A stretch of 64,000 nt of DNA. Source: Eukaryota sp. GEM-RC1 (taxonomy: Eukaryota). The position numbers and the translations under genes were made by a program. Shown in pieces: positions 606 through 46,751 of the stretch. The DNA lies in the NCBI GenBank assembly GCA_040285855.1, contig JAUFOQ010000004.1, positions 1,984,001 to 2,048,000 on the forward strand, given 5' to 3'. The notes under the pieces were generated by a model that was given only the letters and a program-made list of their open reading frames with translations, ran no database searches and had not been told where the DNA came from. Each line of letters opens with the position of its first letter. The first letter of the stretch is position 1.

Positions 606-2145
606 ATGAACTCTGAAGTCTGGATTCCATCAGATCATCTAGATTTTCTGCTTAAAATGTCCCACTATCTATGTGACATTTGTCATGAAATTCTCAAGAA
701 TCCAGTAACTACTTGGTGTGGCCACACCTTTTGCATGTCGCATTTACAGGAGTGGCTTGTTTCTCATGATGGATGTCCAATCTGCCGAGCTGAAGTGGAC
801 AAGTCAAGGCTGTGTCCTAACTACAAGTTGAAAGAAGCTTTTGAAGCCTCCATCACTGGTCAGGGGGGAATCTGTTTGTTTTGAGTGTGAAAAAGCTGCT
901 GCCACTTGTTATTGTGCAGAATGCGATGCCGATTTATGCGACCAATGTTTTAAGGATACTCATCGACCGAAGCTCTTCCGATCCCATGTTGCAATTCCCC
1001 TACAAAAGAAACACGTATCCATTGTGCTTAAATGTCCGATCCATACGACCAAATCCTTTAATCTCTTCTGTACTTCTTGTTCCGTTGCCCTTTGCTCAAC
1101 GTGTGCTATTGCAGACGACCATGACCAGCACAAAAAGAAGTTAATACCCTCTGATGAAGGTCGAGCCTCAGTTGAACAAAGTATCAACTCTATTAACCAG
1201 GAGTTGTTGGTAGCTGTAGAAACAGTCTCACAGTCAGCTCAAACTGCTCTTCAACAAGTAACAAATGACTTTGCCCAAATTAAAGAAAGGCTAACCTCTC
1301 TACTTGAAACAACCATGCTGGATTCTCCTGCCAATATGAATGACTTGAAATCAGAAAAACCAGTTATTTTCAAACCAAAGATCAGCCGAGACTTCATCAC
1401 CGCTTCCAAACAAATCCAAAAGCAATTAGCTGTAATCTCCTCTCTAAGTGACGAACTACTATTGGCTTTCCCTACAACTTCTGAACTTCTAGCTGCTCTT
1501 TCGGTGGATTCTAAGTATTACGTATCTTCCACTGAATCAGAAGGTGAAGAGAAGAAACTTTTTATTGATTGGATCAAACTTAACTCTGATTTGAAGAAGG
1601 TTTACGATCAGATGGTGAAGAATGAGGTTTCTAGCATCAATCTTTATAACAACTCAATTGGTTCTGAAGGCGGTATTGCAAATGCTGAAGCGTTAAAGGT
1701 AAATTCGTCTGTTTCTTCACTAGATTTACGAAACAACTCAATTGGTCCTGAAGGCGCTATTGCGATTGCTGAAGCTTTAATGGTGAATTTGTCTGTTTCT
1801 ATGATTTATCTAGATAACAACTCAATTGGTCCTGACGGCGCTATTGCAATGGCTGAAGCTTTAAAGGTGAATTCTTCTGTTTCTACGATCAGTCTAAATA
1901 ACAACTCAATTGGTAATGAAGTCGCTATTGCAATTGCTGAAGCTTTGGTGGAGAATTCGTCTGTTTCTACGATGGATCTTTACAGCAACTCAATTGGTAA
2001 TGAAGGGGCTATTGCAATTGCTGAAGCTTTGGTGGAGAATTCCACTGTTTCTACGATTTATCTACAGAACAACTCAATTGATATTCAAACACAACAGTCA
2101 TTAAAATCATTGCACAAGAGTAGAATCTATTTCGAGATCACATAA
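606..2145 (+). CDS. TRIM-like RING / B-box / B-box / coiled-coil protein with six C-terminal 28-aa RI/NLRC3-type LRRs; one +1 frameshift at G6 run 863-868
   Basis: RING CDICHEILKNPVTTWCGHTFC..CPICR from ATG 606. The other frame has B-boxes CFECEKAAATCYCAECDADLCDQCFKDTH and CPIH..LFCTSCSVALCSTCAIADDH, a helical region, then NSIGxEGAIAIAEALKVNSSV repeats. Removing one G from caggggggaa joins the frames (TGQ-GESVCFECE); the paralog at 19790 is in frame across this junction. Confidence 0.85.
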
Positions 2146-18747: not shown

Positions 18748-19675
18748 TATTAATTATTAATTAAGTATAATATATGTAAAGATGTTGTAAAGAAATTCCA
18801 AGTGAATTAAATTACTTTTTTCACTGAATAGAATCACTTTTGTAAGATGAAATTGATTGAAAAGGTTAAACTATTTGAACCTTTTGCACATGACAGATCA
18901 TTCGTGACGTCATCATAGTAACTCCTCGTAATATTTATTAGTACTGTATTTGTATCAGATACAGAGGACTTCACACTATTTAAAACAATTAAATTATGAT
19001 CAACTTGAGGACGATTTAGAAGAAACCAGACCACAGCTTAGTAACAATATTTTTAACAGTTACTGGACTAAAATCATTGAAAGAGGCACCTCATTTGATT
19101 TAATCAAGCAAACCAGAAACAACTCATGAAAAACAACGAGCTCTTCTTTGATTAACAAAGAGCTCATATATCACGATACCAAGGTCACTATGTGTCATTA
19201 GGGAAAACTGTCCGTTAAACTGTTAAGAAGCTATGTATTACCGTGTTACTGGTGAGGTATGGGTTGATGAAAGAATTCTTGAGGACCAATATCATCCACT
19301 TTAACCACGGCTATCCACCAAAAGAACCCTTTTCAAATCTTCAGAAAATGAGGATCATGAACTAGCTTGTGCTGTACTTGTTGGTCAAAGATAACATCGA
19401 AGTGTTGGACTCAAACGGGGAATTGCTCAACACAAGTATACTTGAGTGGTCAATAGTATAAATTCCGTGAGACCAAGATAGAATTGAAGTGAAGATCAAT
19501 CTTTAAAGATACTGTCAGACGCACAAAGAAGTCAAAAACCAATGAGTGTGGAACTGTTGGAAAAGGGGGATGATGAATGATTCTAGAGAGTTTTTAGAAG
19601 CTTCACACTTTAACAAAAGTAGGATATCATGTCCTGTTGTCCAATCAATAGGAAACCCATCGCCAAGAAATACCA

Positions 19676-20017
19676 AAGAATCCCGTGACAACATTGTATG
19701 ACCACACCTTCTGTAAGGCAAAACTTGAAGAATGACTTCTCCCCCAGGATGGATGTTCTGTCTGTAGAGCCGAAGAGGACAAGTCTAGGATGTGCCCAAA
19801 CTTCAAGTTAAAGGAAGCCCTTGAAGCTTTTGTTGCTGGTTACACTGATTCTATTTGCTTTACTTGCTTTGAGTGTGAAGAAGCTGCGACAAGTTGTTGT
19901 GGTGAATGCGATGCCGATCTATGTAACCAATGCTTAATAACTATACATTGTCTGAAACTCTTCCGATCCCATACACCAACAATACATGCAAGCAGTTCAC
20001 GAACAGTAGTAGTGTAG
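19676..20017 (+). pseudogene. RING / B-box1 pseudogene fragment, paralog of the TRIM-LRR gene
   Basis: KNPVTTLYDHTFCKAKLEE*LLPQDGCSVCRAEEDKSRMCPNFKLKEALE..CFECEEAATSCCGECDADLCNQC..LFRSH. TGA at 19733 replaces Trp. Confidence 0.8.
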
Positions 20018-25044: not shown

Positions 25045-25779
25045 TTAATAACAGACTCTACTCTTGTGTAATGATTCTAATGACTTTTTTGTTTGTCTGT
25101 TGATTGAGTTCCTACATTGAAAGACCACCTTAAGAGACGACTTCACCTTTAAAGCTTCAGCAATTGCAATTGCACCTTCATTACCAATTGAGTTGTGCTC
25201 TAGATTCACACAAGAAAGAGAGGAATTCACCTTTATAGCTTCTGCAATCGCTACAGCGCCTTCAGGACCAATTAAGTTGTAACTTAGACAGATCGTAGAA
25301 ACAGAAGAATTCACCTTTAAAGTTTCAGCAATTGCAACAGCACCTTCATTCCCAATTGAGTTTTTCATTAGATTGATCCTAGAAACAGAAGAATTCACCT
25401 TTAAAGCTTCCGCAATTGCAATAGCACCTTCATTACCAATTGAGTTGGCATGTAGATAGATCCTGGAAACAGACGAATTCACCTTTAAAGCTTCAGCAAT
25501 TGCAATAGCCCCTTGAGAACCAGCTGAGGTGTAACCTAGCTCGATCATATAAACCTCATTTCCCACCATTTGATCATAACAATTCTTCAACTTAGAGCTA
25601 AGCTTACTCCAATCAATAACAAGTTTCTTTTCTTCAACTTGCTGGACAGGAGACACACTTTCAGCAGACTTGATTGGTAAAACAAAGGAATCATCTTGAG
25701 ACCCAACTGAAGCAACACTGGATTCAGAATCCACAGACAGAGAGGTCAAACGACGAGAAGCAGCGGAGTGGACTGACAA
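25045..25779 (-). CDS. LRR cassette 1 (type A, 6 modules, divergent)
   Basis: 28-aa repeats; ORF start is TTG, first in-frame ATG at MVGNEV. Confidence 0.7.
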   Translation of the reverse strand: MSVHSAASRRLTSLSVDSESSVASVGSQDDSFVLPIKSAESVSPVQQVEEKKLVIDWSKLSSKLKNCYDQMVGNEVYMIELGYTSAGSQGAIAIAEALKVNSSVSRIYLHANSIGNEGAIAIAEALKVNSSVSRINLMKNSIGNEGAVAIAETLKVNSSVSTICLSYNLIGPEGAVAIAEAIKVNSSLSCVNLEHNSIGNEGAIAIAEALKVKSSLKVVFQCRNSINRQTKKSLESLHKSRVCY

Positions 25780-26762
25780 AAGTTCTTCATTTAGGGAGGA
25801 GATGATGGAGGACTGGTGTTGAAGAAGGGTGGAAGTAGTTGTAATGAATTGTTCGTTAATCTGTGGTTGGAAGATACAGTTCGAGTAATAAGGTTATGAG
25901 GTTTTCCTGACTTTAAATCTCACGTTTTTCAACATGCTATCTACATTTCCGATTTTTGTTCTCCAGCTGGTTTACAGAGTACAGATTCATATTCATTACA
26001 GTGTAGCTTAGTGAATGTTAGATAAGTTACTCTATTAAAGATGTCCAAAGACCGGTTCTGTGTGTTGTGACAAATACAAAACAAGATGTCACATTTAATG
26101 AAAGATCATTAAAATAAAATCTAACGAACAACCTAATTCTAACCAGTAGTTAGCACCAAGAGATATATCACCAAAACGTTGTTATTGTGGTGTGTTTGTG
26201 ATATACCACCACCATTTGATTTCCTCCTATTGACTGCACCATTCAATACCACTATTTTGGCAATTCTTTGTCTATAACTAACAGGTTGGTTGCGCACATA
26301 AAAATGAATACATATAAAAACTCATGTAGAATTAGCATTCAAAATAATCAAAACATCATTCAGTTACAGTGAATCTTTCAAAAGCTTTTTCTTGAGAGAA
26401 AATACAATTATTTTGATTATGAGTCAGTATGTTGATGATTCCAAAAGTGTAAACAATTGATATTAAGTGGCATTATTTCATATACTAATTGATATCTGGT
26501 GTTGTTGAAAACAATAGCAAATGTACTACTAAATATGACGTGTCTTATTCGCCAGAGTAGTAGTATTGTATCTGAACATCTGCTAAGCAGCTTTGGTATT
26601 GGTGTATCTGTGTGTCACTTTGGAGTTGTATTTGAGATAATGATTGTTCTGACCTAAACGATATTTGAAGTATGAAATACATTCACCTGATGATGGGGCT
26701 TTTGATAAGAAATCATTTATGATTTTTGAGCAATGTGATCTTTATGTCTAAGGAAAATATCT

Positions 26763-27287
26763 TTAGAAACGCATTCTATTTTTGTGCAGTGGTTTTAATG
26801 ACTGTTGTGTTTGACTGTTGATTGAGTTGTTACCTAGATAGATCTCAGTAACAGAAGAATTCACCTTTAAAGCTTCAGCAATTGCAATAGCGCCTTCATT
26901 ACCAATTGAGTTGTTCTCTAGATAGATCTGAGAAACAGAAGAATTCACCTTTAAAGCTTCAGCAATTGCAATAGCGCCTTCATTACCAATTGAGTTGCTA
27001 CGTAGATAGATCACAGTAACAGACGAATTCACCTTTAAAGCTTGAGCAATTGCAATATCGCCTCCAGGACCAATTGAGTTGGTACCTAGATCGATCACAG
27101 TAACAGAATAATTCACCTTTAAAGCTTCAGCAATTGCAATAGCGCCCTCATTACCAATTGAGTTGTTCTCTAGATAGATCTCAGTAACAGAAGAATTCAC
27201 CTTTAAAGCTTCAGCAATTGCAATAGCGCCTTCAGGACCAATTGAGTTGTTACATAGATTGATCGTAGACAAATCATTTCCCACCAT
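26763..27287 (-). CDS. LRR cassette 2 (type B, 6 modules)
   Basis: ATG MVGNDL, 28-aa repeats, KPLHKNRMRF cap. Confidence 0.7.
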   Translation of the reverse strand: MVGNDLSTINLCNNSIGPEGAIAIAEALKVNSSVTEIYLENNSIGNEGAIAIAEALKVNYSVTVIDLGTNSIGPGGDIAIAQALKVNSSVTVIYLRSNSIGNEGAIAIAEALKVNSSVSQIYLENNSIGNEGAIAIAEALKVNSSVTEIYLGNNSINSQTQQSLKPLHKNRMRF

Positions 27288-28428
27288 TCTCCTCCTTAAA
27301 TGAAGAGCTTTTGTCAGTCCACTCCGATGCTTCTCGTCGTTTGACCTCTCTGTCTGTGGATTCTGAATCCAGTGTTGCTTCAGTTGGGTCTCCAGATTGC
27401 CCTATTTTACAACGCTAACCTTTGGTTGGAAGATACAGTTCGAGTAATAAGTTTATGAGCTTTACTTAAATCTCACGTCTTTCAACTGGCTATCTACATT
27501 TGCGATTTTTGTTTTCCAGCTGGTTTACAGAGTACATATTCCTTACAGTGTGGCTTAGAGAATGTTAGATTATTTACTCTATTAAAGATGTCCAAAGACC
27601 GGTCCTGTGTGTTGAGACAAATACAAAACAAGATGTCATATTTATTTAAAGATCATCAAAACAAAATGTAACTAACAACTAATTCTAACCAGTCGTCAGC
27701 ACCAAGTGATATATCTACATATATTTTTTTCCAGTTTAAATTGAGGAGTTTCCGAACAAATTCTGAACAGACAGTTTTAAACAATACAATCTCTTAAGTT
27801 AAATAACTAATGCTTCCCTATAGAGAAACCGTGGAAGCATAACATTGTTATTGTGGTGTGTTTGTGATATACCAACACCACCAGTTGATTTCCTCCTATT
27901 GACTGCACCATTCAAGAAAACTATTTTGGCAATTCTTTGTCTATAACTGACAGGTTTTTTCCGCACATAGCAATGATTACATATAAAAACACATGTAAAC
28001 TTACCAAAGAAAATAATCAAAGCATCATTCAGTTACACTGAATCTTTCAAAAGCTTTTCCTTGAGAGAAAATGTAATCGTTTTGATTATGAGTCAGTATG
28101 TTGATTCCAAAAGTGTAAACAATTGATATTAAGTTGCATTCTTTCATATACTAATTGATATCTGGTGTTGTTGAAAACTATAGCAAATGTACTACTAAAT
28201 ATGACGTGTCTTATTCGCCAGAGTAGTAGTATTGTATCTGAACATCTGCTAAGCAGCTTTGGTATTGGTGTATCTGTGTGTCACTTTGGAGTTGTATTTG
28301 AGATAATGATTGTTCTGACCTAAACGATATTTGAAGTATGTAATACATTCACCTGATGATGGGGCTTTTGATAAGAAATCATTTATGATTATTGAACAAT
28401 GTGATCTTTATGTCTAAGGAAAATATCT

Positions 28429-28617
28429 TTAGAAACGCATTCTATTTTTGTGCAGTGGTTTTAATGACTGTTGTGTTTGACTGTTGATTGAGTTGTTACC
28501 TAGATAGATCTCAGTAACAGAAGAATTCACCTTTAAAGCTTCAGCAATTGGAATAGCGCCTTCACTACCAATTGAGTTGCTACGTAGATAGATCCCAGAA
28601 ACCTCATTTCTCACCAT
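28429..28617 (-). CDS. LRR cassette 3 (type B minimal, 2 modules)
   Basis: 62-aa ORF, first module plus cap. Confidence 0.55.
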   Translation of the reverse strand: MVRNEVSGIYLRSNSIGSEGAIPIAEALKVNSSVTEIYLGNNSINSQTQQSLKPLHKNRMRF

Positions 28618-29639
28618 TCTCCTCCTTAAATGAAGAGCTTTTGTCAGTCCACTCCGATGCTTCTCGTCGTTTGACCTCTCTGTCTGTGGATTCTGAATCC
28701 AGTGTTGCTTCAGTTGGGTCTCCAGATTGCCCTATTTTACAACGCTAACCTTTGGTTGGAAGATACAGTTCGCGTAATAAGGTTATGAGCTTTACTTAAA
28801 TCTCACGTCTTTCAACTGGCTATCTACATTTGCGATTTTTGTTTTCCAGCTGGTTTACAGAGTACATATTCCTTACAGTGTGGCTTAGTGAATGTTAGAT
28901 AAGTTACTCTATTAAAGATGTCCAAAGACCGGTTTTGTGTGTTGTGACAAATACAAAACAAGATGTCACATTTAATGAAAGATCATTAAAATAAAATCTA
29001 ACGAACAACCTAATTCTAACCAGTAGTTAGCACCAAGAGATATATCACCAAAACGTTGTTATTGTGGTGTGTTTGTGATATACCACCACCATTTGATTTC
29101 CTCCTATCGATTGCACCATTCAATAACACTATTTTGGCAATTCATTGTCTATAACTAACAGGTTTGTTGCGCACATAAAAATGAATACATATAAAAACAA
29201 ATGTAAAATTACCATTGAAAATAATCAAAGCATCATTCAGTTACAGTGAATCTTTCAAAAGCTTTTTCTTGAGAGAAAATACAATTATTTTGATTATGAG
29301 TCAGTATGTTGATCATTCCAAAAGTGTAAACAATTGATATTAAGTTGCATTCTTTCATATACTAATTGATATCTGGTGTTGTTGAAAACTATAGCAAATG
29401 TACTACTAAATATGACGTGTCTTATTCGCCAGAGTAGTAGTATTGTATCTGAACATCTGCTAAGCAGCTTTGGTATTGGTGTATCTGTGTGTCACTTTGG
29501 AGTTGTATTTGAGATAATGATTGTTCTGACCTAAACGATATTTGAAGTATGTAATACATTCACCTGATGATGGGGCTTTTGATAAGAAATCATTTATGAT
29601 TATTGAACAATGTGATCTTTATGTCTAAGGAAAATATCT

Positions 29640-29828
29640 TTAGAAACGCATTCTATTTTTGTGCAGTGGTTTTAATGACTGTTGTGTTTGACTGTTGATT
29701 GAGTTGTTACCTAGATAGATCTCAGTAACAGAAGAATTCACCTTTAAAGCTTCAGCAATTGGAATAGCGCCTTCACTACCAATTGAGTTGCTACGTAGAT
29801 AGATCCCAGAAACCTCATTTCTCACCAT
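29640..29828 (-). CDS. LRR cassette 4 (type B minimal)
   Basis: 62-aa ORF identical to cassette 3. Confidence 0.55.
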   Translation of the reverse strand: MVRNEVSGIYLRSNSIGSEGAIPIAEALKVNSSVTEIYLGNNSINSQTQQSLKPLHKNRMRF

Positions 29829-29990
29829 TCTCCTCCTTAAATGAAGAGCTTTTGTCAGTCCACTCCGATGCTTCTCGTCGTTTGACCTCTCTGTCTGTGG
29901 ATTCTGAATCCAGTGTTGCTTCAGTTGGGTCTCCAGATTGCCCTATTTTACAACGCTAACCTTTGGTTGGAAGATACAGTTCGCGTAATA

Positions 29991-30620
29991 ACCATGAACA
30001 AAGACATAACTGTTTGAACTGGTGATTAACCAAGTACGTTACGTTTTTTTGTCACTACAAGACCAGCTTCTGAGAAAAGTCTTTCATTGGGGATGGAAGT
30101 GCATTGAACAGGAAACCGACTCTGATTTTGTTTCCATTAAGTCACTATGTCAATTGACTTAACGGTTCCTTCAAATACACACACAACTCATCTTCTTCAT
30201 GAGTGTCGATGTCTTTCACATCCGAATCGTCGGAAATTTTATCACGAATATCCAATGAAGATGCATCAGAGTCTGACATCTGTTCAGCATATGCATGATA
30301 AATTTGTTGTACATCCGGAAATACAGATTCGGTGTTGAAAGTTCTAGTAGTTTTACGTTTTTTGAGTTTTGGGTTCAATAAACAAAGCAAATAGGCTGTG
30401 AAATTGCTCATATGATGTACTAGTATGTATTGCCTCACTTTGGAGTACATGATTTCAAATATTTTCTTAAACAACGTATAATATTTTATATGTTTAAAAG
30501 AGTTTCACGTACGTCAACGTGACGCGACGTGACGCAACGTAAGAGGTGACACGGAAATATTCTACGTTGCGTCTCGTCACGCAACAACTTGTGACGCATC
30601 GTGATCATTTGCCAACACTA
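29991..30620 (-). mobile_element. Truncated duplicate of the hAT element (one TIR only)
   Basis: Matches 23165-23794; part of the segmental duplication. Confidence 0.88.
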
Positions 30621-31870
30621 CTGTTCAGCCTTTTCAAGATGGCCATTTGAATCATTCAAAATGGACTCTTTGTAGACTTTTGCAAACGGGTCAACTGTGG
30701 TAAAATCAACCACAACTTGAGATGAATCCAGGAAAGGAGCAATTAGATCACCACGCCGAGAATCAAACACATTTTATTGTTATTATAATGTTTCAGAAGA
30801 GGTTTAATTTTGCAACTATAGTTTAACATATCTTAAGTGACACTACAAACATTTCCTGTAACTGACAGCAAGTCAAAAGGGGGCTGTAGATCTGATATTC
30901 CGGACACAAATAGAATTATTAAGCAAATCACCAAATAGCCCTAGTCGAAGACGCATATTTTGCTTCCAAGCATCATTGTTCAAATGTAAACCTAAAGGTC
31001 TAGGTTGTTGAGTGATGTAGCTAGAACAGATGATGTAAAACAAAAAACCGCCTTTCATTTACATTTACATTTACATTTACAATTAAAAAATATTAACAAC
31101 GGAGATACTAATACATCCACATCATCTCAGCTTCATGTCCCAATTCAAAGAGACTGTTTAAAATCGAATCAATGCTTTGACGAGGAACATGTCAACCTTC
31201 TTTCCAATCACTTTCATAAAACAAAATTCTTTCCATACTATACTGCTTACACTTTGCTGAAAGTGTGAAAATTTTTGTCCCAAAAAGCCATGTAAAGAGC
31301 AATAGCAAAATGATGGAAAACAAACGGATTGTGTCGACGAGAATTCTTTTGATAATTAATTCACTATAAAGATCTGATTTTTTCCTTTCAGCAGTTCCAA
31401 GAGCTTACTAATTTTCGTCTAAAATTTTGTTAATAGAAGATGAGTTACAATGATCAACTGTAGTAAAGTCCATAATTAGTTCTGGAGGGGACAAACGAGA
31501 ATCAATCAACTCTCCTCTTCTCTAATCTCTCATAAATGAGTTAGACAAAGTTCTAAAAACTGATTCGATTCTCCCATGAACACTATTGGTCTTGAACAAT
31601 TTTAAACATTGATCACTAAACTGTTGTAAATGATTGATCATAAATGAATAGACTTATGACAGTTGCCCACATGATTGAAAGAGGCTAAAGAAGAACCACA
31701 TACACAAGTAGACTTTTGACGGAGACCAACAAACATTTCAGCTAACATCAAGCAAATGTTGATAAGCTATTCATGATCTTTTAAGTGGAAACTATATCTT
31801 TGAGGATATCGAATTTATTTTTAAAGTGAAAGAAGTTATCATTATATCCCAGGAATTCATGTTTAGCAAG

Positions 31871-32605
31871 TTAATAACAGACTCTACTCTTGTGTAATGA
31901 TTCTAATGACTTTTTTGTTTGTCTGTTGATTGAGTTCCTACATTGAAAGACCACCTTAAGAGACGACTTCACCTTTAAAGCTTCAGCAATTGCAATTGCA
32001 CCTTCATTACCAATTGAGTTGTGCTCTAGATTCACACAAGAAAGAGAGGAATTCACCTTTATAGCTTCTGCAATCGCTACAGCGCCTTCAGGACCAATTA
32101 AGTTGTAACTTAGACAGATCGTAGAAACAGAAGAATTCACCTTTAAAGTTTCAGCAATTGCAACAGCACCTTCATTCCCAATTGAGTTTTTCATTAGATT
32201 GATCCTAAAAACAGAAGAATTCACCTTTAAAGCTTCCGCAATTGCAATAGCACCTTCATTACCAATTGAGTTGGCATGTAGATAGATCCTGGAAACAGAC
32301 GAATTCACCTTTAAAGCTTCAGCAATTGCAATAGCCCCTTGAGAACCAGCTGAGGTGTAACCTAGCTCGATCATATAAACCTCATTTCCCACCATTTGAT
32401 CATAACAATTCTTCAACTTAGAGCTAAGCTTACTCCAATCAATAACAAGTTTCTTTTCTTCAACTTGCTGGACAGGAGACACACTTTCAGCAGACTTGAT
32501 TGGTAAAACAAAGGAATCATCTTGAGACCCAACTGAAGCAACACTGGATTCAGAATCCACAGACAGAGAGGTCAAACGACGAGAAGCAGCGGAGTGGACT
32601 GACAA
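31871..32605 (-). CDS. LRR cassette 5 (type A, duplicate of cassette 1)
   Basis: One amino-acid difference (S to F) from 25045-25779. Confidence 0.7.
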   Translation of the reverse strand: MSVHSAASRRLTSLSVDSESSVASVGSQDDSFVLPIKSAESVSPVQQVEEKKLVIDWSKLSSKLKNCYDQMVGNEVYMIELGYTSAGSQGAIAIAEALKVNSSVSRIYLHANSIGNEGAIAIAEALKVNSSVFRINLMKNSIGNEGAVAIAETLKVNSSVSTICLSYNLIGPEGAVAIAEAIKVNSSLSCVNLEHNSIGNEGAIAIAEALKVKSSLKVVFQCRNSINRQTKKSLESLHKSRVCY

Positions 32606-33584
32606 AAGTTCTTCATTTAGGGAGGAGATGATGGAGGACTGGTGTTGAAGAAGGGTGGAAGTAGTTGTAATGAATTGTTCGTTAATCTTTGGTTGGAAAA
32701 TACAGTTTGAGTATTAAGGTTATGAGGTTTTTCGGACCTTAAAATCTCACGTTTTTCAACAGGCTTTCTACATTTACGATTTTCGTTTTCCAGCTGGTTT
32801 ACAGAATACATATTCATACTCATTACAGTGTAGCTTAGTGAGTGCTAGATAAGTTACTCTATTAAAGATGTACAAAGATCGGTTCTGTGTGTTGAGACAA
32901 ATACAAAACAAGATGTGACCTTTAATTAAAGACCATTCACAATCTACGAACAACCAAATTCTAACCAGTTGTTAGCACCAAGTGATATATCACCAAAACG
33001 TTGTTATTGTGGTGTGTTTGTGATATACCACCACCATTTGATTTCCTCCTATTGACTGCACCATTCAATACCACTATTTTGGCAATTCTTTGTCTATAAC
33101 TAACAGGTTGGTTGCGCACATAAAAATGAATACATATAAAAACTCATGTAGAATTAGCATTCAAAATAATCAAAACATCATTCAGTTACAGTGAATCTTT
33201 CAAAAGCTTTTTCTTGAGAGAAAATACAATTATTTTGATTATGAGTCAGTATGTTGATGATTCCAAAAGTGTAAACAATTGATATTAAGTTGCATTCTTT
33301 CATATACTAATTGATATCTGGTGTTGTTGAAAACTATAGCAAATGTACTACTAAATATAACGTGTCTTATTCGCCAGAGTAGTAGTATTGTATCTGAACA
33401 TCTACTAAGCAGCTTTGGTATTGGTGTATCTGTGTGTCACTTTGGAGTTGTATTTGAGATAATGATTGTTCTGACCTAAACGATATTTGAAGTATGTAAT
33501 ACATTCACCTGATGATGGGGCTTTTGATAAGAAATCATTTATGATTATTGAACAATGTGATCTTTATGTCTAAGGAAAATATCT

Positions 33585-34025
33585 TTAGAAACGCATTCTA
33601 TTTTTGTGCAGTGGTTTTAATGACTGTTGTGTTTGACTGTCGATTGAGTTGTTACCTAGATAGATCTCAGTAACAGAAGAATTCACCTTTAAAGCTTCAG
33701 CAATTGCAATAGCGCCTTCATTACCAATTGAGTTGTTACCTAGATCGATCACAGTAACAGACGAATTCACCTTTAAAGCTTGAGCAATTGCAATATCGCC
33801 TCCAGGACCAATTCAGTTGGTACCTAGATCGATCACAGTAACAGAATAATTCACCTTTAAAGCTTCAGCAATTGCAATAGCGCCCTCATTACCAATTGAG
33901 TTGTTCTCTAGATAGATCTCAGTAACAGAAGAATTCACCTTTAAAGCTTCAGCAATTGCAATAGCGCCTTCAGGACCAATTGAGTTGTTACATAGATTGA
34001 TCGTAGACAAATCATTTCCCACCAT
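33585..34025 (-). pseudogene. LRR cassette 6 (type B, 5 modules, internal stop)
   Basis: TCA to TGA at 33813-33815 splits the ORF. Confidence 0.7.
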
Positions 34026-35167
34026 TCTCCTCCTTAAATGAAGAGCTTTTGTCAGTCCACTCCGATGCTTCTCGTCGTTTGACCTCTCTGTCTGTGGATT
34101 CTGAATCCAGTGTTGCTTCAGTTGGGTCTCCAGATTGCCCTATTTTACAACGCTAACCTTTGGTTGGAAGATACAGTTCGAGTAATAAGGCTATGAGCTT
34201 TACTTAAATCTCACGTCTTTCAACTGGCTATCTACATTTGCGATTTTTGTTTTCCAGCTGGTTTACAGAGTACATATTCCTTACAGTGTGGCTTAGAGAA
34301 TGTTAGATTATTTACTCTATTAAAGATGTCCAAAGACTGGTCCTGTGTGTTTAGACAAATACAAAACAAGATGTCATATTTATTTAAAGATCATCAAAAC
34401 AAAATGTAACTAACAACTAATTCTAACCAGTCGTCAGCACCAAGTGATATATCTACATATATTTTTTTTCCAGTTTAAATTGAGGAGTTTCCGAACAAAT
34501 TCTGAACAGACAGTTTTAAACAATGCAATCCCTTAAGTTAAATAACTAATGCTTCCCTATAGAGAAACCGTGGAAGCATAACATTGTTATTGTGGTGTGT
34601 TTGTGATATACCACCACCACCAGTTGATTTCCTCCTATTGACTGCACCATTCAAGAAAACTATTTATGCAATTCTTTGTCTATAACTGACAGGTTTTTTC
34701 CGCACATAGCAATGATTACATATAAAAACACATGTAAACTTACCAAAGAAAATAATCAAAGCATCATTCAGTTACACTGAATCTTTCAAAAGCTTTTCCT
34801 TGAGAGAAAATGTAATCGTTTTGATTATGAGTCAGTATGTTGATTCCAAAAGTGTAAACAATTGATATTAAGTTGCATTCTTTCATATACTAATTGATAT
34901 CTGGTGTTGTTGAAAACTATAGCAAATGTACTACTAAATATGACGTGTCTTATTCGCCAGAGTAGTAGTATTGTATCTGAACATCTGCTAAGCAGCTTTG
35001 GTATTGGTGTATCTGTGTGTCACTTTGGAGTTGTATTTGAGATAATGATTGTTCTGACCTAAACGATATTTGAAGTATGTAATACATTCACCTGATGATG
35101 GGGCTTTTGATAAGAAATCATTTATGATTATTGAACAATGTGATCTTTATGTCTAAGGAAAATATCT

Positions 35168-35356
35168 TTAGAAACGCATTCTATTTTTGTGCAGTGGTTT
35201 TAATGACTGTTGTGTTTGACTGTTGATTGAGTTGTTACCTAGATAGATCTCAGTAACAGAAGAATTCACCTTTAAAGCTTCAGCAATTGGAATAGCGCCT
35301 TCACTACCAATTGAGTTGCTACGTAGATAGATCCCAGAAACCTCATTTCTCACCAT
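35168..35356 (-). CDS. LRR cassette 7 (type B minimal)
   Basis: 62-aa ORF. Confidence 0.55.
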   Translation of the reverse strand: MVRNEVSGIYLRSNSIGSEGAIPIAEALKVNSSVTEIYLGNNSINSQTQQSLKPLHKNRMRF

Positions 35357-36498
35357 TCTCCTCCTTAAATGAAGAGCTTTTGTCAGTCCACTCCGATGCT
35401 TCTCGTCGTTTGACCTCTCTGTCTGTGGATTCTGAATCCAGTGTTGCTTCAGTTGGGTCTCCAGATTGCCCTATTTTACAACGCTAACCTTTGGTTGGAA
35501 GATACAGTTCGAGTAATAAGGCTATGAGCTTTACTTAAATCTCACGTCTTTCAACTGGCTATCTACATTTGCGATTTTTGTTTTCCAGCTGGTTTACAGA
35601 GTACATATTCCTTACAGTGTGGCTTAGAGAATGTTAGATTATTTACTCTATTAAAGATGTCCAAAGACCGGTCCTGTGTGTTGAGACAAATACAAAACAA
35701 GATGTCATATTTATTTAAAGATCATCAAAACAAAATGTAACTAACAACTAATTCTAACCAGTCGTCAGCACCAAGTGATATATCTACATATATTTTTTTT
35801 CCAGTTTAAATTGAGGAGTTTCCGAACAAATTCTGAACAGACAGTTTTAAACAATACAATCTCTTAAGTTAAATAACTAATGCTTCCCTATAGAGAAACC
35901 GTGGAAGCATAACATTGTTATTGTGGTGTGTTTGTGATATACCACCACCACCAGTTGATTTCCTCCTATTGACTGCACCATTCAAGAAAACTATTTTGGC
36001 AATTCTTTGTTTATAACTGACAGGTTTTTTCCGCACATAGCAATGATTACATATAAAAACACATGTAAACTTACCAAAGAAAATAATCAAAGCATCATTC
36101 AGTTACACTGAATCTTTCAAAAGCTTTTCCTTGAGAGAAAATGTAATCGTTTTGATTATGAGTCAGTATGTTGATTCCAAAAGTGTAAACAATTGATATT
36201 AAGTTGCATTCTTTCATATACTAATTGATATCTGGTGTTGTTGAAAACTATAGCAAATGTACTACTAAATATGACGTGTCTTATTCGCCAGAGTAGTAGT
36301 ATTGTATCTGAACAGCTGCTAAGCAGCTTTGGTATTGGTGTATCTGTGTGTCACTTTGGAGTTGTATTTGAGATAATGATTGTTCTGACCTAAACGATAT
36401 TTGAAGTATGTAATACATTCACCTGATGATGGGGCTTTTGATAAGAAATCATTTATGATTATTGAACAATGTGATCTTTATGTCTAAGGAAAATATCT

Positions 36499-36687
36499 TT
36501 AGAAACGCATTCTATTTTTGTGCAGTGGTTTTAATGACTGTTGTGTTTGACTGTTGATTGAGTTGTTACCTAGATAGATCTCAGTAACAGAAGAATTCAC
36601 CTTTAAAGCTTCAGCAATTGGAATAGCGCCTCCACTACCAATTGAGTTGCTACGTAGATAGATCCCAGAAACCTCATTTGTCACCAT
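36499..36687 (-). CDS. LRR cassette 8 (type B minimal)
   Basis: 62-aa ORF with two substitutions. Confidence 0.55.
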   Translation of the reverse strand: MVTNEVSGIYLRSNSIGSGGAIPIAEALKVNSSVTEIYLGNNSINSQTQQSLKPLHKNRMRF

Positions 36688-37827
36688 TCTCCTCCTTAAA
36701 TGAAGAGCTTTTGTCAGTCCACTCCGATGCTTCTCGTCGTTTGACCTCTCTGTCTGTGGATTCTGAATCCAGTGTTGCTTCAGTTGGGTCTCCAGATTGC
36801 CCTATTTTACAACGCTAACCTTTGGTTGGAAGATACAGTTCGAGTAATAAGGCTATGAGCTTTACTTAAATCTCACGTCTTTCAACTGGCTATCTACATT
36901 TGCGATTTTTGTTTTCCAGCTGGTTTACAGAGTACATATTCCTTACAGTGTGGCTTAGAGAATGTTAGATTATTTACTCTATTAAAGATTTCCAAAGACC
37001 GGTCCTGTGTGTTGAGACAAATACAAAACAAGATGTCATATTTATTTAAAGATCATCAAAACAAAATGTAACTAACAACTAATTCTAACCAGTCGTCAGC
37101 ACCAAGTGATATATCTACATATATTTTTTTCCAGTTTAAATTGAGGAGTTTCCGAACAAATTCTGAACAGACAGTTTTAAACAATACAATCTCTTAAGTT
37201 AAATAACTAATGCTTCCCTATAGAGAAACCGTGGAGGCATAACATTGTTATTGTGGTGTGTTTGTGATATACCACCACCACCAGTTGATTTCCTCCTATT
37301 GACTGCACCATTCAAGAAAACTATTTTGGCAATTCTTTGTTTATAACTGACAGGTTTTTTCCGCACATAGCAATGATTACATATAAAAACACATGTAAAC
37401 TTACCAAAGAAAATAATCAAAGCATCATTCAGTTACACTGAATCTTTCAAAAGCTTTTCCTTGAGAGAAAATGTAATCGTTTTGATTATGAGTCAGTATG
37501 TTGATTCCAAAAGTGTAAACAATTGATATTAAGTTGCATTCTTTCATATACTAATTGATATCTGGTGTTGTTGAAAACTATAGCAAATGTACTACTAAAT
37601 ATGACGTGTCTTATTCGCCAGAGTAGTAGTATTGTATCTGAACATCTACTAAGCAGCTTTGGTATTGGTGTATCTGTGTGTCACTTTGGAGTTGTATTTG
37701 AGATAATGATTGTTCTGACCTAAACGATATTTGAAGTATGTAATACATTCACCTGATGATGGGGCTTTTGATAAGAAATCATTTATGATTATTGAACAAT
37801 GTGATCTTTATGTCTAAGGAAAATACT

Positions 37828-38016
37828 TTAGAAACGCATTCTATTTTTGTGCAGTGGTTTTAATGACTGTTGTGTTTGACTGTTGATTGAGTTGTTACCT
37901 AGATAGATCTCAGTAACAGAAGAATTCACCTTTAAAGCTTCAGCAATTGGAATAGCACCTTCACTACCAATTGAGTTGCTACGTAGATAGATCCCAGAAA
38001 CCTCATTTCTCACCAT
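37828..38016 (-). CDS. LRR cassette 9 (type B minimal)
   Basis: 62-aa ORF. Confidence 0.55.
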   Translation of the reverse strand: MVRNEVSGIYLRSNSIGSEGAIPIAEALKVNSSVTEIYLGNNSINSQTQQSLKPLHKNRMRF

Positions 38017-39157
38017 TCTCCTCCTTAAATGAAGAGCTTTTGTCAGTCCACTCCGATGCTTCTCGTCGTTTGACCTCTCTGTCTGTGGATTCTGAATCCA
38101 GTGTTGCTTCAGTTGGGTCTCCAGATTGCCCTATTTTACAACGCTAACCTTTGGTTGGAAGATACAGTTCGAGTAATAAGGTTATGAGCTTTACTTAAAT
38201 CTCACGTCTTTCAACTGGCTATCTACATTTGCGATTTTTGTTTTCCAGCTGGTTTACAGAGTACATATTCCTTACAGTGTGGCTTAGAGAATGTTAGATT
38301 ATTTACTCTATTAAAGATGTCCACAGACCGGTCCTGTGTGTTGAGACAAATACAAAACAAGATGTCATATTTATTTAAAGATCATCAAAACAAAATGTAA
38401 CTAACAACTAATTCTAACCAGTCGTCAGCACCAAGTGATATATCTACATATATTTTTTTCCAGTTTAAATTGAGGAGTTTCCGAACAAATTCTGAACAGA
38501 CAGTTTTAAACAATACAATCTCTTAAGTTAAATAACTAATGCTTCCCTATAGAGAAACCGTGGAAGCATAACATTGTTATTGTGGTGTGTTTGTGATATA
38601 CCACCACCACCAGTTGATTTCCTCCTATTGACTGCACCATTCAAGAAAACTATTTTGGCAATTCTTTGTTTATAACTGACAGGTTTTTTCCGCACATAGC
38701 AATGATTACATATAAAAACACATGTAAACTTACCAAAGAAAATAATCAAAGCATCATTCAGTTACACTGAATCTTTCAAAAGCTTTTCCTTGAGAGAAAA
38801 TGTAATCGTTTTGATTATGAGTCAGTATGTTGATTCCAAAAGTGTAAACAATTGATATTAAGTTGCATTCTTTCATATACTAATTGATATCTGGTGTTGT
38901 TGAAAACTATAGCAAATGTACTACTAAATATGACGTGTCTTATTCGCCAGAGTAGTAGTATTGTATCTGAACATCTGCTAAGCAGCTTTGGTATTGGTGT
39001 ATCTGTGTGTCACTTTGGAGTTGTATTTGAGATAATGATTGTTCTGACCTAAACGATATTTGAAGTATGTAATACATTCACCTGATGATGGGGCTTTTGA
39101 TAAGAAATCATTTATGATTATTGAACAATGTGATCTTTATGTCTAAGGAAAATATCT

Positions 39158-39346
39158 TTAGAAACGCATTCTATTTTTGTGCAGTGGTTTTAATGACTGT
39201 TGTGTTTGACTGTTGATTGAGTTGTTACCTAGATAGATCTCAGTAACAGAAGAATTCACCTTTAAAGCTTCAGCAATTGGAATAGCGCCTTCACTACCAA
39301 TTGAGTTGCTACGTAGATAGATCCCAGAAACCTCATTTCTCACCAT
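39158..39346 (-). CDS. LRR cassette 10 (type B minimal)
   Basis: 62-aa ORF. Confidence 0.55.
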   Translation of the reverse strand: MVRNEVSGIYLRSNSIGSEGAIPIAEALKVNSSVTEIYLGNNSINSQTQQSLKPLHKNRMRF

Positions 39347-40487
39347 TCTCCTCCTTAAATGAAGAGCTTTTGTCAGTCCACTCCGATGCTTCTCGTCGTT
39401 TGACCTCTCTGTCTGTGGATTCTGAATCCAGTGTTGCTTCAGTTGGGTCTCCAGATTGCCCTATTTTACAACGCTAACCTTTGGTTGGAAGATACAGTTC
39501 GAGTAATAAGGCTATGAGCTTTACTTAAATCTCACGTCTTTCAACTGGCTATCTACATTTGCGATTTTTGTTTTCCAGCTGGTTTACAGAGTACATATTC
39601 CTTACAGTGTGGCTTAGAGAATGTTAGATTATTTACTCTATTAAAGATGTCCAAAGACCGGTCCTGTGTGTTGAGACAAATACAAAACAAGATGTCATAT
39701 TTATTTAAAGATCATCAAAACAAAATGTAACTAACAACTAATTCTAACCAGTCGTCAGCACCAAGTGATATATCTACATATATTTTTTTCCAGTTTAAAT
39801 TGAGGAGTTTCCGAACAAATTCTGAACAGACAGTTTTAAACAATACAATCTCTTAAGTTAAATAACTAATGCTTCCCTATAGAGAAACCGTGGAAGCATA
39901 ACATTGTTATTGTGGTGTGTTTGTGATATACCACCACCACCAGTTGATTTCCTCCTATTGACTGCACCATTCAAGAAAACTATTTTGGCAATTCTTTGTT
40001 TATAACTGACAGGTTTTTTCCGCACATAGCAATGATTACATATAAAAACACATGTAAACTTACCAAAGAAAATAATCAAAGCATCATTCAGTTACACTGA
40101 ATCTTTCAAAAGCTTTTCCTTGAGAGAAAATGTAATCGTTTTGATTATGAGTCAGTATGTTGATTCCAAAAGTGTAAACAATTGATATTAAGTTGCATTC
40201 TTTCATATACTAATTGATATCTGGTGTTGTTGAAAACTATAGCAAATGTACTACTAAATATGACGTGTCTTATTCGCCAGAGTAGTAGTATTGTATCTGA
40301 ACAGCTGCTAAGCAGCTTTGGTATTGGTGTATCTGTGTGTCACTTTGGAGTTGTATTTGAGATAATGATTGTTCTGACCTAAACGATATTTGAAGTATGT
40401 AATACATTCACCTGATGATGGGGCTTTTGATAAGAAATCATTTATGATTATTGAACAATGTGATCTTTATGTCTAAGGAAAATATCT

Positions 40488-40907
40488 TTAGAAACGCATT
40501 CTATTTTTGTGCAGTGGTTTTAATGACTGTTGTGTTTGACTGTTGATTGAGTTGTTAAGTAGATCGATCCTAGTAACAGAATAATTCACCTTTAAAGCTC
40601 CAGCAATTGCAATAGCGCCTTCACTACCAATTGAATTGTTATTTAGATTGATCCCAGAAACAGACGAATTCACCTTTAAAGCTTCAGCAATTGCAATAGC
40701 GCCTTCAGGACCAATTGAGTTGTTACTTAGATCGATCGTAGAAGCCTCATTTCTCACCATCTGATCATAACAATTCTTCAACTTAGAGCTAAGCTTACTC
40801 CAATCAATAACAAGTTTCTTCTCTTCAACTTGCTGGACAGGAGATACATGTTTAACCGATTTGATTGGTAAAAACAGTGTCATCTTGGGAGGTAGAAGAA
40901 GCAACAC
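40488..40907 (-). CDS. LRR cassette 11 (type A, 3 modules; extra base in the N-terminal linker near 40870)
   Basis: ggtaaaaacag here versus ggtaaaacag in sister copies; LRR part intact. Confidence 0.6.
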   Translation of the reverse strand: MLLLLPPKMTLFLPIKSVKHVSPVQQVEEKKLVIDWSKLSSKLKNCYDQMVRNEASTIDLSNNSIGPEGAIAIAEALKVNSSVSGINLNNNSIGSEGAIAIAGALKVNYSVTRIDLLNNSINSQTQQSLKPLHKNRMRF

Positions 40908-42061
40908 TGGATTCAGAATCCACAGACAGAGAGGTCAAACGACGAGAAGCAGCGGAGTGGACTGACAAAAGTTCTTCATTTAGGGAGGAGATGATGGAGG
41001 ACTGGTGTTGAAGAAGGGTGGAAGTAGTGGTGATGAAGTCTTCGCTAACCTTTGGTTGGAAAATACAGTTTCAGTATTAAGGTTATGAGGTTTTCTGGAC
41101 CTTAAAATCTCACGTTTTTCAACAGGCTTTCTACATTTACGATTTTTGTTTTCCAGCTGGTTTACAGAATACATATTCATACTCATTACAGTGTGGCTTA
41201 GTGAGTGCTAGATAAGTTACTCTATTAAAGATGTACAAAGATCGGTTCTGTGTGTTGAGACAAATACAAAACAAGATGTGACCTTTAATTAAAGACCATT
41301 CACAATCTACGAACAACCAAATTCTAACCAGTTGTTAGCACCAAGTGATATATCTAAATACTTTTTCCAGTTTTCATTGTGGAACTTCTGAACAAATTCT
41401 AAACACAAAGTTTTTAACAATACAAATTCTTAATTTCGTCGACTGTAAACTTCCCCATAAAGAAACCGTGGAAGCAAAACTTTGATATTGTGGTGTGTTC
41501 GTGTTATAACTCCGCCATTTGATTGTCTCCTGCTGACTGCAAACTATTTTGGCAATTCTTTGTCTATAACTAACAGGTTTATTATGCACATGGCAATGAG
41601 TACATATAAAAACACATGTAAAATTATCATTGAAAACAAACAAAGCATCATTTAGTTACATTGAATATTTCAAAAACTTGTTCTTGAGCGAAAATACAAT
41701 CGTGTTAATTATGAGTCAAAATGTTGATGATTCCAAGAGTGTAAACATTCGAAATAATGTAGCATTATTTCAGAAACTAATTACTATCTGGTGTTTTTGA
41801 CAACAATAGTGAATGAACTACTGAACACGATGTGTCTATTCGCCAGAGTAGTCTTGTATCTGAAAATCTGCTAAGCAGTTTTGGTATTGGTTTCTTTGTG
41901 GGTCACTTTGGAGTTGTATTTGAGATAATGATTGCTCTGACCTAAACGATATTTGAAGTGTAATACATTCATTCTTTGATGGCTGATGATGATGGTGCTC
42001 TTGATAAGAAATCATTTATGATTTTTTGAGTAATGTGATTTTATGTCCAAGGAAAATATCT

Positions 42062-43804
42062 TTAGAAATAAATTCTATTCTTGTGTAGTGATTTTAATGA
42101 CTGTTGTGTTTGACTGTCGATTGAGTTGTTCTCTAGATAGATCACAGTAACAGACGAATTCAACTTTAAAGCTTCAGCAATTGCAATAGCGCCTTCATTA
42201 CCAATTGAGTTGTTACCTAGATTGATCACAGTAACAGACGAATTCACCTTTAAAGCTTCAGCAATTGCAATAGCGCATTCATTACCAATTGAGTTGTTAC
42301 CTAGATTGATCACAGTAACAGACGAATTCACCTTTAAAGCTTCAGCAATTGCAATAGCGCCTTCAGGACCAGTTGAGTTGTTATGTAGATAAATCTGAGA
42401 AACAGACGAATTCACCTTTAAAGCTTCAGCAATTGCAATAACGCCTTCATTACCAATTGAGTTGTTATATAGATCGATCACAGTAACAGACGAATTCACC
42501 TTTAAAGCTTCAGCAATTGCAATAGCGCCTTCAGGACCAATTGAGTTGTTATGTAGATAAATCTGAGAAACAGACGAATTCACCTTTAAAGCTTCAGCAA
42601 TTGCAATAGCGCATTCATTACCAATTGAGTTGTTACCTAGATTGATCACAGTAACAGACGAATTCACCTTTAAAGCTTCAGCAATTGCAATAGCGCCTTC
42701 AGGACCAGTTGAGTTGTTATGTAGATAAATCTGAGAAACAGACGAATTCACCTTTAAAGCTTCAGCAATTGCAATAACGCCTTCATTACCAATTGAGTTG
42801 TTATATAGATCGATCACAGTAACAGACGAATTCACCTTTAAAGCTTCAGCAATTGCAATAGCGCCTTCAGGACCAATTGAGTTGTTATGTAGATAAATCT
42901 GAGAAACAGACGAATTCACCTTTAAAGCTTCAGCAATTGCAATAGCGCATTCATTACCAATTGAGTTGTTACCTAGATTGATCACAGTAACAGACGAATT
43001 CACCTTTAAAGCTTCAGCAATTGCAATAGCGCCTTCAGGACCAGTTGAGTTGTTATGTAGATAAATCTGAGAAACAGACGAATTCACCTTTAAAGCTTCA
43101 GCAATTGCAATAACGCCTTCATTACCAATTGAGTTGTTATATAGATCGATCACAGTAACAGACGAATTCACCTTTAAAGCTTCAGCAATTGCAATAGCGC
43201 CTTCAGGACCAATTGAGTTGTTATGTAGATAAATCTGAGAAACAGACGAATTCACCTTTAAAGCTTCAGCAATTGCAATAGCGCCTTCAGGACCAATTGA
43301 GTTGTTATGTAGATCGATCCTACTAACAGACGAATTCACCTTTAAAGCTTCAGCAATTGCAATAGCGCCTTCAGGACCAATTGAGTTGTTATGTAGATAA
43401 ATCTGAGAAACAGACGAATTCACCTTTAAAGCTTCAGCAATTGCAATAACGCCTTCATTACCAATTGAGTTGTTATATAGATAGATATCAGAAACAGACG
43501 AATTCAGCTTTAAAGCTTCTGCAATTGCAATAGCGCCTTCAGGACCAATTGAGTTGTTATCTAGACCGATCGCAGAAACCTCATTTCTCACCATCTGATC
43601 ATAACAGTTCTTCAGCTCAGAGCTCAGCTTTCTCCAATCAATAACAAGTTTCTTCTCTTCAACTTGCTGGACAGGAGACACACTTTCAGCAGACTTGATT
43701 GGTAAAACAAAGGAATCATCTTGAGACCCAACTGAAGCAACACTGGATTCAGAATCCACAGACAGAGAGGTTAAACGACGGGAAGCAGCAGAGTAGACTG
43801 ACAA
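42062..43804 (-). CDS. LRR cassette 12 (type A, 18 modules)
   Basis: 580-aa ORF: 17 full 28-aa repeats plus terminal cap module. Confidence 0.8.
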   Translation of the reverse strand: MSVYSAASRRLTSLSVDSESSVASVGSQDDSFVLPIKSAESVSPVQQVEEKKLVIDWRKLSSELKNCYDQMVRNEVSAIGLDNNSIGPEGAIAIAEALKLNSSVSDIYLYNNSIGNEGVIAIAEALKVNSSVSQIYLHNNSIGPEGAIAIAEALKVNSSVSRIDLHNNSIGPEGAIAIAEALKVNSSVSQIYLHNNSIGPEGAIAIAEALKVNSSVTVIDLYNNSIGNEGVIAIAEALKVNSSVSQIYLHNNSTGPEGAIAIAEALKVNSSVTVINLGNNSIGNECAIAIAEALKVNSSVSQIYLHNNSIGPEGAIAIAEALKVNSSVTVIDLYNNSIGNEGVIAIAEALKVNSSVSQIYLHNNSTGPEGAIAIAEALKVNSSVTVINLGNNSIGNECAIAIAEALKVNSSVSQIYLHNNSIGPEGAIAIAEALKVNSSVTVIDLYNNSIGNEGVIAIAEALKVNSSVSQIYLHNNSTGPEGAIAIAEALKVNSSVTVINLGNNSIGNECAIAIAEALKVNSSVTVINLGNNSIGNEGAIAIAEALKLNSSVTVIYLENNSIDSQTQQSLKSLHKNRIYF

Positions 43805-44898
43805 AAGTTCTTCATTTAGGGAGGAGATGATGGAGGACTGGTGTTGAAGAAGGGTGGAAGTAGTTGTAATGAATTGTTCGTTAATCTGTGGTTGGAAAAT
43901 ACAGTTTGAGTATTAAGGTTATGAGGTTTTTCGGACCTTAAAATCTCACGTTTTTCAACAGGCTTTCTACATTTACGATTTTCGTTTTCCAGCTGGTTTA
44001 CAGAATACATATTCATACTCATTACAGTGTAGCTTAGTGAGTGCTAGATAAGTTACTCTATTAAAGATGTACAAAGATCGGTTCTGTGTGTTGAGACAAA
44101 TACAAAACAAGATGTGACCTTTAATTAAAGAACATTCACAATCTACGAACAACCAAATTCTAACCAGTTGTTAGCACCAAGTGATATATCTAAATACTTT
44201 TTTCCAGTTTTCATTGTGGAACTTCTGAACAAATTCTAAACACAAAGTTTTTAACAATACAAATTCTCAATTTCGTCAACTGTAAACTTCCCCATAAAGA
44301 AACCGTGGAAGCAAAACTTTGATATTGTGGTGTGTTCGTGTTATAACTCCGCCATTTGATTGTCTCCTGCTGACTGCAAACTATTTTGGCAATTCTTTGT
44401 CTATAACTAACAGGTTTATTATGCACATGGCAATGAGTACATATAAAAACACATGTAAAATTATCATTGAAAACAAACAAAGCATCATTTAGTTACATTG
44501 AATCTTTCAAAAACTTGTTCTTGAGCGAAAATACAATCGTGTTAATTATGAGTCAAAATGTTGATGATTCCAAGAGTGTAAACATTCGAAATAATGTAGC
44601 ATTATTTCAGAAACTAATTACTATCTGGTGTTTTTGACAACAATAGTAAATGAACTACTGAACACGATGTGTCTATTCGCCAGAGTAGTGTTGTATCTGA
44701 AAATCTGCTAAGCAGTTTTGGTATTGGTTTCTTTGTGGGTCACTTTGGAGTTGTATTTGAGATAATGATTGCTCTGACCTAAACGATATTTGAAGTGTAA
44801 TACATTCATTCTTTGATGGCTGATGATGATGGGGCTTTTGATAAGAAATCATTTATGATTTTTGAGCAATGTGTTCTTTATGTCTAAGGAAAATATCT

Positions 44899-46562: not shown

Positions 46563-46751
46563 TTAGAAACGCATTCTATTTTTGTGCAGTGGTTTTAATG
46601 ACTGTTGTGTTTGACTGTTGATTGAGTTGTTACCTAGATAGATCTCAGTAACAGAAGAATTCACCTTTAAAGCTTCAGCAATTGGAATAGCGCCTTCACT
46701 ACCAATTGAGTTGCTACGTAGATAGATCCCAGAAACCTCATTTCTCACCAT
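46563..46751 (-). CDS. LRR cassette 14 (type B minimal)
   Basis: 62-aa ORF. Confidence 0.55.
   Translation of the reverse strand: MVRNEVSGIYLRSNSIGSEGAIPIAEALKVNSSVTEIYLGNNSINSQTQQSLKPLHKNRMRF

Follow-up and report, generated by a model that had tools for sequence, protein, structure and literature searches.

Domain organization of the 606-2145 locus

Positions 606-2145 of the window, the window being the whole 64,000-nucleotide stretch of Eukaryota sp. GEM-RC1 DNA that was analysed, contain a RING finger, two B-boxes (B-box1 and B-box2), two long helices and six RI-type leucine-rich repeats (LRRs), all of them present and split over two reading frames. The initial annotation had described a complete tripartite motif at this site; the domains were indeed all found in order, but they do not form one ORF, a +1 offset at 863-868 having been missed. 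The features of the locus and of related parts of the window are as follows.

657..884, plus strand: 5' frame with RING finger (672-788; C3H-C-H-C2) and the helix that follows it; upstream in-frame ATGs at 585 and 606
863..868, plus strand: run of six G with a frame offset of one base (from the sequence)
877..987, plus strand: B-box type 1, eight ligands in the genomic frame (Pfam, ligand pattern)
1033..1131, plus strand: B-box type 2 (Pfam, ligand pattern)
1150..1498, plus strand: coiled-coil region, H1 at about 1150-1320, a linker, and H2 at about 1384-1498 (placed according to the model of P0002, a paralog)
1499..1617, plus strand: flexible linker, shorter by about 19 aa than that of P0002, and the LRR N-cap common to all H2-type array cassettes
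1618..2145, plus strand: six 28-aa RI-type LRR units (five full units and a capping unit) and stop codon
2146..2630, plus strand: 3' flank, 64-70% identical to the LRR-array spacers
19664..19975, plus strand: decayed fragment covering RING and B-box1 of a family member; it contains an in-frame stop, has lost ligands and is in frame over the RING/B-box junction
25048..63999, minus strand: 25 headless LRR cassettes of the same family in tandem, none with a RING or B-box (ORFs, sequence comparison)

The RING frame (477-884, stop at 882-884) gave a match to Pfam zf-C3HC4_2 (E 1.3e-9, 606-881). Its offset of +1 relative to the B-box-to-LRR frame falls at GGGGGG (863-868), the sole run of six or more G or C within the 64 kb window. 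The B-box-to-LRR frame (832-2145, 437 aa) is free of stops over its 437 codons and keeps every zinc ligand, with its first Met only at residue 162. Two stretches matched Pfam zf-B_box (E 1.8e-13) and the zinc-ligand patterns were complete for B-box1 (877-987) as well as B-box2 (1033-1131). The repeats form six units of 28 aa at 1618-2121, the sixth being a cap, and match LRR_6 (E 4.8e-11), in agreement with the earlier description of six LRRs of the array family; the LRR units have an 84-nt period and are intronless. Translation more likely begins at ATG 657, the start in 10 of the other 11 paralog models that have a RING, than at position 606, where the stretch in the initial annotation begins.

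No match to Pfam TRIM_CC was obtained for the locus at E≤0.1, and the assignment of a coiled coil comes from predicted helices and the predicted dimer of paralog P0002. Pfam scans of the locus and its paralogs detected neither a MATH domain nor NACHT/NB-ARC. The repeats do belong to the 28-residue RI class and are NOD2-like, but as a NACHT domain is absent the label "NLR-type" given to them initially covers the repeat class only.

Paralogs in the same genome

Eukaryota sp. GEM-RC1, unclassified in NCBI taxonomy, is probably, judging from the match of the names, the same organism as Skoliomonas sp. GEMRC, a free-living anaerobic metamonad with a genome reported as 48% repetitive (PMC11316075). 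A search with the B-box/helix part returned 5 matches among 1157 candidates, all from Eukaryota sp. GEM-RC1. Besides the locus itself there are at least 11 RING-bearing family models, a minimum figure, of which 4 carry LRRs, 1 has another tail (P0004) and 6 are truncated. The gene predictions P0002, P0003, P0007 and P0011 each hold RING, both B-boxes, helices and LRRs in a single chain; in P0011 one head and two cassettes have probably been merged into a single model. With P0004, five gene models thus combine RING, B-box and coiled coil within a single polypeptide. Further members are P0033, with a degenerate RING, one B-box and LRRs, and P0027 and P0031, with helices and LRRs only. The initial annotation had allowed that RING and B-box/LRR might never be joined in a paralog; given four single-chain models, the architecture of a RING-B-box-coiled-coil (RBCC) head with RI-type LRRs stands at the family level.

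The heads are 77-81% identical or more, and the number of LRRs varies from 6 to 11 in P0002, P0003 and P0007. Intact fusions lie on at least three contigs, 2818101, 2144279 and 2095613 in length, with zinc ligands conserved. The sixth RING ligand is His at 606-2145 and Asp in most paralogs, and not Cys. The Ile, Trp, Pro and linchpin Arg of the RING, which are used for E2 binding, were kept in 7 of the 8 models checked, the exception being the degenerate P0033.

P0004 has the same RBCC head followed by a non-LRR tail (residues 325-403) that looks RRM-like by eye and had no Pfam match at E≤1, which suggests tail swapping at the same junction. In P0110, P0162 and P0116, likewise from GEM-RC1, related RI-type LRR tails are joined to protein kinase or reticulon domains.

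The break in the reading frame

As assembled, the 606-2145 copy is unable to make the full protein. Paralog models continue in frame across the site matching 863-868. The database model of the locus, P0001, equals the window translation with 859-895 (37 nt, GT..AG) spliced out. That intron deletes 12 residues kept in the paralogs, including the first CxxC of B-box1, and because two B-box1 zinc ligands go with it, the intron is probably the predictor's way of bridging a frameshift.

An uncorrected homopolymer error in the assembly is the likeliest explanation, one that we consider somewhat probable. The Skoliomonas sp. GEMRC assembly was made from nanopore R9.4 reads with Canu and short-read polishing, and the genome has 27 fragmented BUSCOs, the most of four long-read assemblies, compared with 9 in its own transcriptome (PMC11316075). 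Near-identical array copies in the window differ in having A5 or A6 (4 versus 4 copies), and in 1 of 10 array copies the frame is broken by an additional T. The models P0008, P0009, P0010 and P0012 go out of frame directly after B-box2, at the position of an A-run in the window, to which we attribute their loss of frame. The downstream frame of the 606-2145 copy, open for 437 codons and with its zinc ligands complete, also speaks for an error.

That the copy is a young pseudogene is possible, at rather less than even likelihood. Of 145 RBCC positions that are otherwise invariant, 11 carry private changes in this copy, compared with 1, 1, 4, 7 and 24 in five paralogs, and there are scaffold changes in LRR1 and LRR4, all of which fits early decay. 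The LRR scaffold ratio of the copy, 0.41, is similar to that of other divergent copies (0.22-0.39).

It is very doubtful that the 37-nt intron, or else a programmed +1 recoding at G6, is real in this copy and yields protein: the GT..AG ends of 859-895 do bring the frame back and give P0001 exactly, and RNA-seq served both to train and to check the annotation pipeline (PMC11316075). But the intron cuts out sequence that is coding in the paralogs, two B-box1 cysteines included; of 16 frame-restoring GT/GC-AG candidates, the 6 that keep the RING and B-box1 patterns are each 37-97 nt long and likewise cut paralog-coding sequence; and at 19664 the decayed copy passes from RING to B-box in one frame.

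Structural comparison of the head and the LRRs

The RBCC part matched PDB chains of TRIM28 (E 1.8e-10, colinear), TRIM2, TRIM3, TRIM25 and TRIM21, and was 23% identical to amphioxus TRIM2 over 240 columns. For the B-box pair the best sequence match was Toxoplasma PCR5/PCR4 (9ya0, E 9.3e-12). NOD2 was the top match of the LRRs by both sequence and structure (Foldseek, rmsd 1.8); ribonuclease inhibitor also matched, and many of the RI-type LRR matches were axonemal or actin-binding proteins.

In an AlphaFold model of P0002, built on an 8-row alignment, the LRRs had a pLDDT of about 90 and the helices 165-220 and 244-281 were of moderate confidence, while residues 1-124 were below 50, making the zinc fingers unreliable. 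Residues 118-290 were predicted to form a homodimer with a score of 0.53, compared with 0.00 for the best of 3 controls. The dimer runs had at least 77% of contacts in common and pLDDT of at least 67, and the register is antiparallel (201-201, 190-208, 187-215). Among microbial proteins, 21 of 30 pairs and 0 of 23 single chains came up to the mark used for this score; for eukaryotes the figures were 17 of 29 pairs and 0 of 30 single chains. As only 1 of 7 pairs without an older solved relative reached it, the score for P0002 may reflect memory of TRIM structures. We read the prediction as showing likeness to TRIM dimers and not binding.

Variation of the LRR binding face

A pattern search of the window found 81 repeat units, 46 of them distinct, and after removal of 8 first-repeat units 38 internal units were compared; the pattern missed unit 4 of the 606-2145 gene and a few other divergent units. 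At four strand positions, which were chosen after the entropy profile had been seen and are also the expected concave-face positions, pN was 0.49 and pS 0.14 (0.138), compared with a pN of 0.09 and a pS of 0.13 (0.130) in the scaffold. The resulting pN/pS was 3.7 for the strand positions (taken against the all-site pS of 0.13; bootstrap 2.9-5.3) and 0.70 for the scaffold. Counted as distinct variants, amino-acid-changing to silent differences were 31:3 at the strand positions and 31:27 in the scaffold (Fisher p 1.7e-4), or 28:1 and 24:25 when the 606-2145 gene was left out. These figures come mostly from headless array cassettes, treat units that are non-independent and ignore recombination. 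The concave face of the LRRs is diversifying, and the equal silent rates on face and scaffold speak against a mutation hotspot.

The headless LRR array and other features of the window

The window holds 27 LRR ORFs of the TRIM-LRR family; 26 of these are headless, and 25 of the headless ORFs make up the minus-strand array. Ten array cassettes start at helix H2, 13 have an inverted linker upstream, one is broken and one is cut by the end of the window. They are spaced 1.2-2.8 kb apart, with one step of 817 nt and bigger gaps between blocks, and different cassettes share identical 81-nt repeats. By comparison of sequences, the headless cassettes read as 5'-truncated descendants of a TRIM-LRR gene, and the homology of the array spacers to the 3' flank at 2146-2630 indicates that gene and array share descent. 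Use of the cassettes as alternative 3' exons was not supported, the GT-AG signals at the breakpoints all being present in the coding ancestor too.

The cassette family has one more headless LRR ORF, solitary and more divergent, at 9659-10351 (minus strand). A 263-aa open frame at 4733-5524 (minus strand), which ends after one LRR, shares 40% identity with the N-terminal portion of P0094; it appears from this likeness to belong, in truncated form, to a second LRR family. An intact frame of 714 aa at 20224-22365 (plus strand) has LRR_4/LRR_9 repeats and a long likely coiled coil, and its product presumably resembles centrosomal LRR coiled-coil proteins. Two short frames are probably transposon remains: the one at 12632-13081 (minus strand) we take by eye to be a piece of a GIY-YIG-type nuclease, and the one at 16164-16598 (plus strand), again by eye, presumably the SWIM zinc finger of a MULE transposase.

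Distribution of the architecture

Outside GEM-RC1 no protein with RING, B-box and RI-type LRRs was found in homolog searches which, being word-limited, are weak evidence of absence. One gave 4 matches among 48 candidates, all from GEM-RC1. Another gave 8 among 6762, namely 3 family members, two animal SPRY-type TRIMs, amphioxus TRIM2 and two unassigned B-box proteins, and none of the five non-family matches among these candidates had LRRs. A representative search was dominated by LRR proteins, with RING or B-box seen only in P0001 and P0033 among the best 150 of 48,849. A metagenome scan gave 3 loci out of 79 pattern matches, all RING-only, and a viral scan 0 of 18.

The ESM Atlas contained a RING and B-box cluster in which the commonest phylum was Ciliophora (6 with a record), and clusters of B-box with LRR_4/LRR_8 of 108 and 91 members. 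The B-box thus evidently exists elsewhere with other LRR classes, to judge from these domain assignments, and LRRs have probably been joined to TRIM parts more than once. As the Atlas displays at most three Pfam families per cluster, further domains of the RING and B-box cluster are hidden and a cluster with RING, B-box and LRR may exist there. We found no paper on a RING-B-box-CC-LRR class in the literature covered, subscription papers and InterPro/CDART lying outside that coverage. With the reservation that the searches were weak, these results agree with the initial opinion that this is not a standard TRIM class, and at the family level the RBCC-LRR proteins are a real TRIM variant and apparently an undescribed one.

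Discussion

On balance, we favour the view that these proteins are a lineage-specific TRIM (RBCC) family in which the intact proteins carry RI-type LRR tails and likely act as dimeric ubiquitin ligases that choose fast-changing targets by means of these tails, with 606-2145 a frameshifted copy. In the modelled arrangement the H1/H2 pair would be antiparallel; B-boxes and RINGs would sit at either end, and flexible linkers would carry the two LRR solenoids. The LRRs of such a dimeric RING E3 would select the substrate. TRIM5 is activated when clustering on a repetitive target brings its RINGs into action, and from TRIM biology a repetitive target might here too cluster dimers so that RINGs pair; E2-dependent ubiquitination would then lead to proteasomal or autophagic removal of the target. 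A diversifying LRR face points to foreign or selfish targets, most plausibly escaped prey or symbiont bacteria, a virus or a transposon protein, and by analogy the family may have an immune role. The initial annotation had proposed an LRR sensor wired to ubiquitination in the manner of TRIM5. This gains from the E2-binding residues kept in the RING and from the diversifying LRR face, but the LRR cassette is also found on kinases and a reticulon domain, so that fusion alone does not imply a TRIM5-like role.

Much of the same material could have arisen through neutral shuffling, in which a highly amplifying LRR cassette came to lie downstream of an ordinary RBCC gene and the fusion was spread by tandem duplication, most copies dying, that at 606-2145 included. 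A genome that is 48% repetitive (PMC11316075), 26 of 27 LRR ORFs in the window without a head, the LRR cassette on kinase and reticulon domains as well, the same head with a non-LRR tail in P0004, the decayed RING-B-box at 19664 and the weak constraint implied by a scaffold pN/pS of 0.70 would all be expected. We nevertheless consider it unlikely, as the excess of amino acid changes is restricted to the binding face at equal silent rates (0.138 versus 0.130) and intact fusions with conserved zinc ligands persist on at least three contigs.

It is improbable in our estimation that the family is a housekeeping or structural E3, or a scaffold, for self proteins of the cytoskeleton, flagellum or membranes, with the LRR variation tracking paralogous self targets. 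Strong diversification, an LRR number of 6 to 11 and no ortholog detected beyond the organism would be unusual for such a protein, even if the best match of the B-box pair is Toxoplasma PCR5/PCR4 (9ya0), axonemal or actin-binding proteins are among the many RI-type LRR matches, and the oldest TRIM roles have been argued to be housekeeping (Marin 2012, PMC3503706).

An extension to which we give a similarly low likelihood is a variable-receptor system, in which a few expressed TRIM heads would take LRR tails from the headless arrays by gene conversion or unequal crossover, making a reshufflable, antibody-like E3 repertoire. Hints of tail exchange are that ten cassettes begin at the same point, helix H2, that 9 of these 10 show 86-96% identity with P0002 over 100 residues, that identical 81-nt repeats occur in different cassettes, and that P0002 has 2 of 5 scored strand cores in common with the array; against it, the 606-2145 copy has 0 of 4 in common and P0003, P0007 and P0011 have none.

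If ligases of fast-changing targets are indeed what the family encodes, then the design of a constant ligase head and a variable sensor tail seen in TRIM5 and finTRIMs would have arisen independently in a single-celled lineage, and would offer a direct handle on cell-autonomous defence in protists as well as a small modular LRR-E3 scaffold. It is the family that is of value, and P0002 and P0003 are better subjects than the 606-2145 copy.

Comparison with known systems

TRIMs reported outside animals are TRIM37-like subfamily A proteins of the MATH type, almost always with one B-box, Trichomonas members included, and the words "LRR" and "leucine" have 0 occurrences in the main text of that survey (Marin 2012, PMC3503706); Dictyostelium has one TRIM37 ortholog (PMC5758549). 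Subfamily A shares with the GEM-RC1 family a RING and B-box in a non-animal eukaryote, whereas the latter has two B-boxes and LRRs and is without MATH. In a free-living metamonad, a TRIM family with two B-boxes and a diversifying binding domain of its own would contrast with the MATH-type, mostly single-B-box picture of 2012.

With NLR receptors (NOD2, NLRP) and ribonuclease inhibitor the family shares the 28-residue RI-type LRR fold and nothing beyond the repeat class. The brown algal ROCO proteins also show shuffled LRR modules and diversifying selection in a non-animal lineage, although there each LRR is an exon and sits on a GTPase, compared with intronless 84-nt units and a ligase head in GEM-RC1 (PMC11378527).

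LRSAM1 (LRR-CC-SAM-RING), a xenophagy E3, combines LRR recognition, coiled-coil oligomerisation and a RING in one chain (PMC8567218). It is the best functional counterpart; its domain order is the reverse, it is without B-boxes and it has a SAM domain. To our knowledge LRSAM1 is not an expanded variable family.

Animal TRIM/RBCC proteins (TRIM28, TRIM2/3, TRIM25, TRIM5 and the teleost finTRIMs) have the same RING-B-box1-B-box2-helix order with sequence homology. They differ in ending in PRY-SPRY, NHL, PHD-bromo or MATH and not in RI-type LRRs, and the GEM-RC1 RING has His or Asp as its sixth ligand and its host is a unicellular metamonad. Animal TRIM coiled coils are longer than the H1 of the GEM-RC1 family (about 56 residues). 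In the finTRIMs, as in the GEM-RC1 family, near-identical RING/B-box heads are combined with a diversifying C-terminal binding domain (PMC2657112).
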